From assembly GCA_031265365.1 (NCBI GenBank), contig JAISCS010000030.1, positions 1 through 56,282 of the forward strand: a stretch of DNA of 56,282 bases, given 5' to 3'. Made by a program: the position numbers and the translations under genes. The notes under the pieces were generated by a model that did no database searches, had not been told where the DNA came from, and saw only the letters and a program-made list of their open reading frames with translations. Below, piece by piece: positions 53,147 through 55,934 of the stretch. The stretch is from Verrucomicrobiales bacterium (GTDB lineage Bacteria > Verrucomicrobiota > Verrucomicrobiia > Methylacidiphilales > JAAUTS01). Numbering within the stretch: the first letter of the stretch is position 1; the number at the start of each line of letters is the position of its first letter.

Positions 53147-55420
53147 TCAGCGGCGGCGGCGGACGGTGAGTAGCAGCGCCGCGCCGAGGGTCAGCAGGAG
53201 CCATGTCGAGGGTTCGGGGATGGCTTCCAGCGTCAGGCGCAGGTTGTGGTTGTCGAACAGCAGCGTGTATTCCCAATTTGGATGCAGCAGGTCGCTGACG
53301 GTCATGTCGGTGAGGAAACCGTCGGTGTTGGTGGCGCCACTGGAAGTGGTAAAACCGTCGGTCAGCAGCCAAGTCGCGCCGGCGTCGGGAGTGTAGCCGC
53401 CGAGGAAGTTGAGCATCAGCGTGGTCAGCGCGTTTTCCTCTACGTACAATCCGCTGCCGCCGCTACGCGTGGCCCGCACCAGGTCGTTCGCGTCGGCGGA
53501 CAAATCCACCGCGAAAATGCCGCCATCGTCAAAGACCAAATCGGTGACAGTCGCGCCGAGCAACAGCGTGCCGGCTTGATAATTGCCGGAAATGTCGCCC
53601 GGTGCCAGGATGCCGCTGCCGCTGACCACGAGCTGACCGCCCGAGGCGGGGTCGCCTTTGCCGACCACCAACCCGCCGCTGGCGTTCACCGTGCCGACGC
53701 CGGACAGTTTTCGCACCTTGGAACTGGCATTGACGCTAACCACCCCGCCGCGGTCCACACGCAATTCCGTCGTCGCGGGCAGCGCCAAGGCGTTGCTAAT
53801 TGTCAGACCGCCCTGCGCCAAGGTGATGCCGTGGTAGGTGTTGGCGCCGCTGAGCGTCACGCCAGTGCCCACGTTCGCCGCAATCAACCCGACCTCATCG
53901 TCAGCGACGGAGTTGGTGATGCCGGCGCCCACGCCAATAGTGGCGCGGCCCGTGATAATCAGCGGATTGTCGCCGGTGTTCAGGATGCCGCTGCCATTGA
54001 TGTCGACGTAATTGCCGCCCGCCACGATGGCGCCGGAAGTGACCGTCAGCGTCGTGTTAGCGGCGATGGTGTGCGTGATGTTGTTGCTGTCGAGCTTCAG
54101 CGCGTTGACAGTCAAATCTTGGTCAACCGTAACGCCGGTGCCGCCCAGCGACACGTTGTCATAACTTCCGGACGCTAAAAATGTCGTGCTGTCGTCAGCC
54201 GTGTAATACTCGCTGGCGGTCAGGGCGCGGAAACCATCGGCGGCGGTGTACGTGACCAAATTCGCGCCGGACCATGCGCCGTTGTTTTCGGTGCCCAGAA
54301 AGTCGTTGTCATTGCTGTTGTTCGCCGCCGCCCACGGCAGGATTTTCACTTGGTCCCCGCCGCCCACCAAGGCATCAAGCACGGCCTGGCTGCTTTGGGC
54401 GTCGCTAATCTTGACAAAATGGCCGAAGCCCAGCGTGCCGCTGTTGTTTGAACTAAGAATGTTGAGCGTGGCGAAATTCCGGCGCTCCAGCGCGCTGATG
54501 GTCAGGGTTTTGTTCAGGCTGGAAATCACCGCGCGTCCCCCGTACAAATTGACCGCGCCGACCGACTGGTCAACGACATTGCTCCGCCCCATGAACAGCC
54601 CGCCACTGTACAAATTCACCGGTGCGTCGCCCAGCACGTTGGTGTCAGTGACGCTGACATTACTCAACAGCACACCGAGGAGCGAGCCTTGGCCGACCAC
54701 GTTGTACTCGGTCGCGCCAGTGATTTTGCCGAAACCGCTCTGGTCATAGCCCAGCGCCAACTGGCCTGCCAGCACCTCGACTTTGCCGCTGCCACTGCCG
54801 CTGATGGTCACGGTGCGGTTGAGAGACAAATAACCGCCGCCGTTTTTGGTCAGCGAGCCGACGTTGCTCATGGTGGCGTGCATCGCGAAAATATCACGGC
54901 CTTGCGCGTTGCCGATGGCTTGCGACGACGGGGAGATGGTGAACGTCAGCGCGCTATCGGGCTGGAACTGGAGGGAGAAATTCCGGTTGTGCACGCCGAA
55001 GTTCAAGGTTTTGTTCAAGGTAATCCCGCCGATGTCCACGAAAAACACGGGCTGCGTGGAGGCAAAAGTCCAAGTCTGGCCATTGGGATACGACGTCACC
55101 GTGGCCGCGTCCTCCACCTGCCAAGTGAAATTATTTTCCACGGTGTGGTTGGAATTAATGTTAATGGAAAAATTACCGTCTCCCCAGCCGTAGAGTCCGC
55201 TGAAGGTGTCGTTGATTTTGCTGTCAACCCAATTGGTAGGGTCGGTGTACTGAAGGTCTGTGACAGTGCCCGTCCATTGCGCTTGCGCCGGCCCGGCCAG
55301 CGCCACGAACCCTAACAAACTAATAAGATGGACTACCCCCCCCCCCCGCTTATATATTGTATAAATTGAGGTTAGGCGATTGACGTTTTCCCTGACGGTT
55401 TTGAAAAATACGCTTTTCAT
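53147..55420 (-). CDS. PEP-CTERM-anchored surface protein with autotransporter-associated beta-strand repeats
   Basis: The C-terminus IPEPSTWLLLTLGAALLLTVRRRR is a PEP-CTERM sorting signal. Repetitive G/T/N/V-rich beta-strand repeats are present (LTKNGGGYLSL, TISG...). The signal peptide LISLLGFVALAGPAQA follows a homopolymer-encoded GGG. Confidence 0.85.
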   Translation of the reverse strand: MKSVFFKTVRENVNRLTSIYTIYKRGGGVVHLISLLGFVALAGPAQAQWTGTVTDLQYTDPTNWVDSKINDTFSGLYGWGDGNFSININSNHTVENNFTWQVEDAATVTSYPNGQTWTFASTQPVFFVDIGGITLNKTLNFGVHNRNFSLQFQPDSALTFTISPSSQAIGNAQGRDIFAMHATMSNVGSLTKNGGGYLSLNRTVTISGSGSGKVEVLAGQLALGYDQSGFGKITGATEYNVVGQGSLLGVLLSNVSVTDTNVLGDAPVNLYSGGLFMGRSNVVDQSVGAVNLYGGRAVISSLNKTLTISALERRNFATLNILSSNNSGTLGFGHFVKISDAQSSQAVLDALVGGGDQVKILPWAAANNSNDNDFLGTENNGAWSGANLVTYTAADGFRALTASEYYTADDSTTFLASGSYDNVSLGGTGVTVDQDLTVNALKLDSNNITHTIAANTTLTVTSGAIVAGGNYVDINGSGILNTGDNPLIITGRATIGVGAGITNSVADDEVGLIAANVGTGVTLSGANTYHGITLAQGGLTISNALALPATTELRVDRGGVVSVNASSKVRKLSGVGTVNASGGLVVGKGDPASGGQLVVSGSGILAPGDISGNYQAGTLLLGATVTDLVFDDGGIFAVDLSADANDLVRATRSGGSGLYVEENALTTLMLNFLGGYTPDAGATWLLTDGFTTSSGATNTDGFLTDMTVSDLLHPNWEYTLLFDNHNLRLTLEAIPEPSTWLLLTLGAALLLTVRRRR
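55336..55347. repeat. C12 (G12 on the coding strand) homopolymeric tract in the 5' end of the PEP-CTERM gene
   Basis: Twelve consecutive C counted at 55336-55347. The tract lies between the first ATG (55420) and the signal peptide. Confidence 0.9.
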
Positions 55421-55554
55421 ATACAGAAAAAATAATCCTCCGCTATTTGCGCGTCAAGAAAAAATATTATTTTTTTTCGCCGCTGCCGGCACCACCGATG
55501 TCACCATCAGCGCCGGTCTTGTCCATATATGGTAATTCATCATATATTGGCAGA

Positions 55555-55709
55555 GTACTCCGTCATCCTGAGCGTAGCACCGTAGGTGCGAAGTCGAAGG
55601 AGCGGTCGGGTCAGGGTCTGCGGATTAGTTGCTGCCAGCCGGTTAGTCAGTGCTTGGCCGGTCCTTCGACTACGCCCTTTCAGGGCTACGCTCAGGATGA
55701 CGGGGTACT
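55555..55709. repeat. Family-C hairpin MITE-like element
   Basis: gtactccgtcatcctgagcgtagc ... gctacgctcaggatgacggggtac. Confidence 0.8.
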
Positions 55710-55934
55710 CGGCCAATGTTATGATGAATTATCATGGCAGTTTCCCGCCACTCGCAATGGTATCGCTAACGGCGGAATGACCCACACCGACTAAGACAAA
55801 TTCCCTTCTTCGAGCGGGGAATTTACCGGCGCGATTGTTCCGGCATTAGCTATTCCATCAATAACCGCGAGGAACCCTAAACCAAAAAAATCTTTGCGAA
55901 CCTTTGTCCCTTCGCGCCTTTGCGTCAAATTATT

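Follow-up and report, generated by a model that had tools for sequence, protein, structure and literature searches.

A run of 12 guanines in the 5' coding region of a PEP-CTERM protein gene is probably a translational phase-variation contingency locus of the Neisseria pilC/opa type. The run (G12) lies on contig JAISCS010000030.1 of the Verrucomicrobiales bacterium assembly GCA_031265365.1, the whole of which (positions 1 to 56,282) was analysed and is called the window here. Read directly from the genomes are the tract itself, its place in translated sequence, the effect of its length on the reading frame, the recurrence of such tracts with diverse lengths, and a mixture of ON and OFF phases among them. 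We further propose, with evenly balanced confidence, that G12 is part of a contingency system, so far undescribed, that extends across a genus of uncultured Verrucomicrobiales. Such a system would comprise dozens of hypermutable repeats per genome (7- and 8-nt arrays plus poly-G tracts in the window genome, mainly poly-C/G of 11-15 in sister species), carried in leader cassettes of ~200 nucleotides (nt) that are homogenised within a genome and swapped between the orthologs of different species, and would drive stochastic expression, in varied combinations, of at least 20 PEP-CTERM beta-helix proteins plus pseudopilin-like and other secreted proteins.

The G12 tract and its gene

The genome holding the window (G000, in which the window is contig C186) is a 78%-complete metagenome-assembled genome (MAG) of 2.76 Mb in 213 contigs, with 60% G+C. 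The tract occupies positions 55347-55336 on the coding (minus) strand and is read as C12 on the plus strand (55336-55347). It is the longest homopolymer of the window, the runner-up runs being 8 nt. None of 100 dinucleotide-preserving shuffles of the window produced a run of 12, and the expectation for such a run per window is 0.044 if bases are independent and identically distributed (iid). For the whole of G000 the iid expectation is ~2 G/C runs of at least 12 nt and ~24 of at least 10 nt, and the genome-wide number of long G/C runs is by itself not significant. These runs are in fact depleted, with just five of at least 10 nt well inside contigs, a count that leaves out the clusters of G/C runs at the ends of contigs C3, C124, C202 and C21. 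Four of the five have a promoter-proximal ATG on one side and an exported protein's hydrophobic core on the other; the fifth, a G11 at C12:1026, is at the 3' end of an open reading frame (ORF). The position of long G/C runs, rather than their count, is the non-random feature. The excluded contig ends hold interrupted poly-G/poly-C series (G21, G18, C9-C11; C3:25228-25291, C124:21-78 and C202:39-64) that look like read artefacts of two-colour chemistry and are not countable as biological tracts. The G12 tract is 935 nt from the contig end and has unique flanks.

The features of the window gene, all on the minus strand, are as follows.

53147..55420, minus: whole ORF of 757 amino acids (aa), in the ON phase as assembled
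55429..55457, minus: putative sigma-70-like promoter box, TTGACG-17 nt-TATTTT, from a consensus scan, preceded by A/T-rich AAAAAAAATAATATTTTTTC
55418..55420, minus: ATG start codon, 8 nt after the -10 hexamer, the sole start that gives a signal peptide
55348..55420, minus: n-region of the signal peptide, MKSVFFKTVRENVNRLTSIYTIYK(R), A/T-rich with 34% G+C
55351..55364, minus: near-palindrome TTATACAATATATA (consensus TTATACAaTGTATA), directly 5' of the G12 tract
55336..55347, minus: G12 homopolymer, encoding part of R-G-G-G-V, the proposed slipped-strand switch
55333..55335, minus: TAG abutting the tract, the stop used when the tract is G11 (also G14)
55320..55322, minus: TAG five codons past the tract, the stop used when the tract is G13 (also G10)
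55280..55335, minus: h- and c-regions of the signal peptide, VVHLISLLGFVALAGPAQA, with a hydropathy peak at residues 29-43 and predicted cleavage at A-Q-A/QW
53225..55279, minus: mature body, a predicted right-handed beta-helix (AlphaFold2 and Foldseek)
53150..53224, minus: PEP-CTERM sorting signal AIPEPSTWLLLTLGAALLLTVRRRR (PF07589, TIGR02595)

The N-terminus of the 757-aa ORF reads MKSVFFKTVRENVNRLTSIYTIYKRGGGVVHLISLLGFVALAGPAQA/QWTG, the stroke marking the predicted cleavage site. Residues 1-31 have a net charge of +5. In the family alignment the cleavage junction is conserved, with no variation at A47 or W49 and almost none at Q48. Judged from charge, hydropathy and this alignment, a predicted N-terminal Sec signal peptide is present only with the start at 55420. 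An AlphaFold2 model built from 11 family sequences (predicted local distance difference test, pLDDT, 83; predicted template-modelling score, pTM, 0.83) has disordered residues 1-45, an all-beta body and a terminal helix at residues 739-756. The best Foldseek matches of the model are right-handed beta-helices, mostly passenger or adhesin domains of autotransporters (Ssp, IgA1 protease, Hap, pertactin, Ag43), at weak scores (E about 1e-4, template-modelling score about 0.2) that point to a predicted fold class and not to family membership. Membership of the type Va autotransporters was rejected, because the protein ends in a single PEP-CTERM helix and has no beta-barrel translocator. The C-terminus scores 23.8 bits with PF07589 (cut-off 20.7) and 26.4 bits with TIGR02595 (cut-off 16), and the PEP motif, transmembrane helix and basic cluster of a PEP-CTERM signal are all present. 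An exosortase gene (PF09721, 150 bits) is found on contig C32 of the same genome. A preliminary description of this DNA, made from its letters, had reported a C12/G12 run at exactly these coordinates as the longest homopolymer, had read the N-terminus of the ORF at 55420..53147 (minus) as we do, and had called the product a PEP-CTERM protein, and we agree on each count: the next runs are 8 nt and both profiles score above their curated cut-offs.

The start codon precedes the tract by 73 nt. Of ten family leaders in G000 whose upstream sequence is intact, nine have the promoter layout of the window gene (TTGACx-16/18-TAxxxT, then an ATG 6-8 nt on), the leader on contig C196 fits it with a weaker -10, and no conserved Shine-Dalgarno sequence was found in the family leaders. 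By this geometry the mRNA appears to be leaderless, with transcription starting at or next to ATG 55420. A promoter-spacer switch of the Neisseria porA/opc type was rejected, as the tract begins 81 nt downstream of the -10 and does not lie between the hexamers. Folding of the leader RNA gave no unusual structure (z = -0.95), and a role for RNA structure in the leader was discarded for this reason.

The interval from the ATG to the tract has no stop codon in the ATG frame and two and one in the other frames, despite its 34% G+C. Over ten poly-G leaders (four in G000 and six in sister species; 246 codons; intervals of 66-86 nt), stops number 0/31/15 in frames 0/+1/+2, a pattern with a joint shuffle P of about 5e-8. 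Stops are missing upstream of the tract in the ATG frame alone, and the tract is therefore translated. Public gene calls start 3' of it, at TTG 55318 (NCBI, 723 aa) or GTG 55306 (JGI, 719 aa). The products of these starts begin MLGFVALAGPAQA or MALAGPAQA, with no n-region, at most nine hydrophobic residues and no charge. We reject the downstream starts because they leave no usable signal peptide on a protein that needs export to meet the exosortase. The nearest paralog, on contig C70, is mis-started likewise in public calls (726 and 730 aa).

With the start at 55420, G12 gives the 757-aa ORF, G11 a peptide of 28 aa and G13 one of 33 aa. The arrangement in which the tract runs directly into a TAG is common to C70, C196, G003:C254 and G002:C47 (G002 and G003 being sister-species genomes). 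These results support the earlier placement of the tract between the true start codon and the signal peptide, through promoter geometry and the stop patterns 0/2/1 and 0/31/15, and the computed truncations to 28 or 33 aa agree with the claim that a change of one base either way would uncouple the start from the signal peptide. The fallback offered there, a downstream start with an effect on 5' untranslated region (UTR) spacing, does not hold: there is no downstream signal peptide and the upstream interval is open only in the ATG frame. A poly-G/C tract counts as a candidate for phase variation in the field from a length of at least 9 (PMC5953494), and G12 exceeds this.

Sequences within two mismatches of the palindrome consensus TTATACAaTGTATA occur in only five places in the 2.76 Mb of G000, three of them directly 5' of G11-12 tracts (C186, C70 and C196). 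The two copies besides that of the window are at C70:7731-7744 and C196:25560-25573, the latter before a non-homologous pseudopilin-like gene. The palindrome plus poly-G unit was absent among the 60 relatives searched and is therefore specific to the window species. Leaders of the octamer type, described below, carry a related AATATATACA immediately ahead of the array.

Repeat leaders in paralogs and sister species

The window gene belongs to a paralogous family with at least 20 members in G000, and all 15 complete bodies end in PEP-CTERM. In the nearest paralog (C70, G11, 53% identity) the ATG-to-tract distance is 70 nt against 73 nt in the window gene, and the phases from ATG to tract and from tract to core equal those of the window gene; its G11 is out of frame, and G12 would give 763 aa. 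A third tract (C119, G10) is one base away from a 931-aa ORF. The G11 tract on C196 (C196:25538-25548, minus) is one base from ON for a 1383-aa ORF whose N-terminus, RGAALIIALFALLLI, resembles a pseudopilin or a prepilin of the type II secretion system (T2SS) K type. The repeat-switch design is therefore not limited to the PEP-CTERM family. At least 17 paralogs have perfect octanucleotide repeats at the position of the tract, mostly (GGCAATTC)n in 9-15 copies, and the arrays directly precede the conserved LNRSLTLA... core. Each of the six complete octamer leaders lies exactly one repeat unit away from an ORF of 616-965 aa.

Tandem Repeats Finder identified 66 repeat loci in G000 (counted at 95% or more perfect and at least five copies), which comprise 58 octamer and 8 heptamer arrays of 5-17 copies. 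No perfect repeats of period 6, 9 or 12 were found in the same search, and the repeats of the genome are clearly biased toward frame-shifting units. The commonest unit is GGCAATTC (19 loci). Examples of the repeat loci are:

C181:12953-13023
C174:1828-1921
C146:3241-3328
C102:5157-5243
C65:7507-7582
C150:2382-2467

Of the 66 loci, 42 lie at contig ends (of which the assembly has 426), and in many of these the repeat measures exactly 118 nt, which fits repeats that an assembly at k=119 cannot bridge; k119 appears in the contig names of sister MAGs. Genes for MutS and MutL are present in G000.

By a housekeeping gene of the window, the closest named relatives are MAGs called 'Verrucomicrobiales bacterium', at 79-85% identity. 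From their names (Pc512, Gx481, Gx485, Cf509) the nearest of them may derive from termite-gut metagenomes, which a literature search did not confirm; Treponema MAGs bear the same sample prefixes, and a termite-gut source would make the lineage host-associated. The sister genomes G002 and G003 together have at least 13 family genes with a poly-C/G tract between a promoter-proximal ATG and the signal-peptide core. The tracts are C11, C12, C14, C15, G11, G12, G14 and G15, often with similar flanks. Three of these 13 leaders are in frame, and five of 24 once ten G000 loci and G003:C134 (an octamer leader of four copies, in frame) are added. The out-of-frame genes are broken only at the repeat, with 570-1350 open codons downstream. 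Reciprocal-best orthologs retain a repeat in the leader and differ in its type or length:

G000 C146b (GCACTTCG)11 and G003:C192 C14: 88.7% protein identity over 924 aa
G000 C146a octamer and G002:C141 C12: 77% protein identity
G000 C81 octamer and G002:C146 G12: 74% protein identity
G000 C119 G10 and G002:C47 G12: 60% protein identity

Alignment of G000:C146:3000-3530 with G003:C192 gives ~97% DNA identity from the signal-peptide c-region on, and again upstream of the promoter. The intervening ~200 nt of C146b and G003:C192, which hold promoter, ATG, repeat and h-region, are unrelated. The leader therefore acts as a replaceable cassette. Leader blocks are also homogenised per genome, being mostly of the octamer type in G000 and mostly of the poly-C type in G002 and G003.

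The window gene itself has no ortholog in the sister genomes, where the best matches of its N-terminal domain have 32-37% identity. In G003 (97% identity over the transketolase), a small membrane ORF and a methyltransferase replace it. Exact look-ups of the 757-aa and 723-aa products returned no other assembly of the gene, two metagenome scans (one for a leader pattern with gaps, the other for a 23-nt anchor on the 3' side of the tract) found nothing, and a search of the genome contigs for loci related to the window locus gave no relative. A 54-aa 'cluster member' of the C70 paralog, P0011, was rejected as an unrelated fragment. The genome G001, of the same genus and in 20 contigs, has no G/C run of at least 10, no (GGCAATTC)3 and no match to the N-terminal domain of the family. 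Thus either the family with repeat-bearing leaders has a patchy distribution in the genus, or G001 comes from another sub-lineage.

A second repeat-leader design is present in G000 at C202:9007-9070, C64:12410-12498, C41:27386-27465, C209:19857-19916, C8:5732-5804 and C39:2602-2686, and in G004 on C138 and C212. Here a promoter-like box precedes a short ORF (MHFLIDNA...) that continues into a perfect octamer array. Behind the array come a conserved box CCGCCTAGTTTTACCCGCTT..TTCCCCATGCGG, ~200-250 nt of hairpin-forming repeats of 21-22 nt, and finally the ribosome-binding site and start codon (ATG) of a secreted-protein gene. A terminator-like hairpin comes after the repeat-bearing short ORF in G004. 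From this layout, the second design may be an attenuation-type switch.

Between the transketolase and the promoter of the window gene, at ~55540-55740, there is an inverted repeat that resembles a miniature inverted-repeat transposable element (MITE), with arms CGTCATCCTGAGCGTAGC / GCTACGCTCAGGATGACG and inner sequences GTCGAAGGA / TCCTTCGAC. A second short element is found near it (~55879-55928), and both are present in dozens of copies in G002 and G003.

Weighing the proposed switch against other explanations

In the proposed mechanism, transcription would begin at or next to ATG 55420 and yield a leaderless mRNA. Ribosomes would read ~24 A/T-rich codons, then the G tract (Arg-Gly-Gly-Gly-Val), and then the hydrophobic core with the AQA/QW site behind it. 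The Sec signal peptide would lead out a beta-helix protein of 710 aa, and exosortase would anchor it through the PEP-CTERM tail. Slipped-strand mispairing at replication would gain or lose a G. With G12, G9 or G15 the frame would be intact and the protein made; with G11 or G13 ribosomes would meet a TAG zero or five codons past the tract and release only a 28- or 33-aa peptide. Such switching would be heritable and reversible. At least 20 switches of this kind, poly-G or octanucleotide, would act at the same position in the paralogous surface-protein family, so that a clonal population would express varied combinations of its members. We infer the transcription start, the slippage at this locus with its rate, and display at the surface. 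Slippage has strong indirect support from the homologous leaders of G000 and the sister species, whose tracts of 10-15 are in mixed ON/OFF phase. An apparently hypermutable tract kept at one position while sequence, unit and length vary is what would be expected of contingency loci, and not of ordinary coding sequence or pseudogenes.

Several points weigh against this model. The window gene has neither an ortholog nor a syntenic counterpart in the sister genomes, and the leaderless start is deduced from promoter geometry only. Short-read MAGs can miscount homopolymers of 11 or more by one base, which makes single ON/OFF calls soft; the octamer ON/OFF data are free of this weakness. The ON fraction (5 of 24) falls short of the one third that free-running switches should show. 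MutS and MutL are both present, so the switching rate of G12 may be modest. Mismatch repair suppresses slips of one base in mononucleotide runs and does not suppress 7-8-nt loops, which may be why octamers dominate in G000, and this suggests that the G12 switch is slower than those of repair-deficient Campylobacter.

The tract could instead be a stable run of glycine codons, tolerated in the n-region, that arose by chance or mutational bias and switches at no relevant rate. The ~2 runs of at least 12 expected under the iid model in a genome of such size and composition, the presence of MutS and MutL, and the in-frame state of the window gene all favour this explanation. Yet long G/C runs are depleted and four of the five internal ones lie at one position. 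Moreover, 19 of 24 homologous leaders are out of frame exactly at the repeat, unlike a coding tract under purifying selection, orthologs swap the tract for another repeat and not for ordinary codons, and every repeat unit, being of 7 or 8 nt, shifts the frame. We therefore consider a chance stretch unlikely. A shade less likely again is slippage of RNA polymerase or the ribosome on G12, by which a fixed in-frame fraction would arise from any allele length and DNA length would matter little. Long homopolymers are indeed slippage sites for RNA polymerase (dnaX, mxiE and the poly-A tracts of endosymbionts), and such slippage would explain expression from a family that is mostly 'OFF'. It leaves unexplained why most paralogs carry octanucleotide repeats at this position, and we know of no 8-nt slip as a transcriptional event. 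The leader also lacks a stimulatory RNA structure (z = -0.95), and a G run is unlike the mainly A/T runs on which the known cases of transcriptional slippage occur. Transcriptional slippage on G12 could nevertheless add leakiness to a DNA-level switch.

An artefact of assembly or sequencing behind the tract length or the ON/OFF pattern, or decay of the family to pseudogenes, is in our judgement very unlikely. G000 is an incomplete MAG (78%) in 213 contigs, and the G/C clusters at the ends of C3, C124 and C202 do look like two-colour poly-G artefacts. The window tract, however, is 935 nt from its contig end with unique flanks, the repeats are perfect, and the 'broken' genes are broken only at the repeat, with 570-1350 codons open behind it. 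The same design is moreover found in independent MAGs of three species. The least probable reading gives the tract a role in transcription or the 5' UTR, through promoter spacing or UTR length, with translation starting downstream. Both public annotations do start the gene 3' of the tract. Against this, the tract is 81 nt downstream of the only good -35/-10 pair, the downstream products (MLGFVALAGPAQA or MALAGPAQA) are too short and uncharged for PEP-CTERM export, and the frame-specific lack of stops upstream of the tract shows translation. This model is largely refuted, and slipped-strand switching of translation at G12 is the reading we retain.

Implications and comparison with known systems

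Repeat-driven phase variation is textbook knowledge in Neisseria, Haemophilus, Campylobacter and Helicobacter; for uncultured phyla, whether environmental or symbiotic, hardly any case is documented. Literature searches returned no paper tying repeat phase variation to Verrucomicrobia or to PEP-CTERM proteins. The mechanism is thus already known, and the host phylum, the PEP-CTERM beta-helix family, the leaderless geometry, the scale and the cassette behaviour are new as far as the searchable literature shows. If the model is true, a Verrucomicrobiales lineage varies its cell surface by pathogen-like logic on a larger scale. The lineage-wide system, if it exists as proposed, would be among the largest phasomes known and would lie outside the classical host-adapted pathogens. 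Confirmation would also show that standard gene callers mis-start or split such genes (both public calls miss the signal peptide) and that short-read assemblies break at such switches. The system further offers a test of the older idea that repair-proficient bacteria favour long repeat units and that mononucleotide tracts are favoured where repair is weak.

Published ranges for comparable tracts are G9-20 for the poly-G of Neisseria pilC, 7-21 for the CTTCT repeat of the Opa family (up to 12 copies), and C9-13 for the genic tract of the autotransporter gene nalP (PMC5953494). The window gene resembles nalP and Escherichia coli Ag43 in that beta-helix surface proteins are placed under on/off control, and Ag43, pertactin and Hap are among its nearest folds. 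It differs from both in having no beta-barrel translocator and ending in a PEP-CTERM anchor. The switching of Ag43 is epigenetic, through Dam and OxyR, and does not involve slippage.

In the phasomes of Campylobacter jejuni and Helicobacter pylori, surface-structure genes are switched by frameshift at numerous genic G/C tracts of ~8-14. G12 is like these in being a genic G/C tract that would act by frameshift. C. jejuni and H. pylori have no mismatch repair of the MutS/MutL type, whereas G000 has MutS and MutL, which may be why units of 7 and 8 nt that escape repair dominate there.

A likeness in position is to Neisseria pilC1/pilC2, where a G homopolymer also lies in the 5' coding region of a surface-organelle protein and a slippage frameshift toggles translation; Jonsson and colleagues reportedly placed the pilC tract in the signal-peptide region in 1991. 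The two differ in phylum (Verrucomicrobiota versus Pseudomonadota) and in product (a PEP-CTERM beta-helix protein versus a pilus tip adhesin). In addition, the window mRNA appears leaderless, its family has at least 20 members that mostly carry octamer repeats, and its switching is inferred. With the opa genes the window family shares the organisation of a surface multigene family in which a separate frame-shifting repeat stands between start codon and signal-peptide core in every copy, and in which most copies are OFF at once, an arrangement that gives combinatorial expression in opa and would do so here. The units are of 1, 7 or 8 nt here and of 5 nt (CTTCT/CTCTT) in opa, and the window family is larger, has an unrelated fold and exchanges its leader block as a cassette between orthologs.

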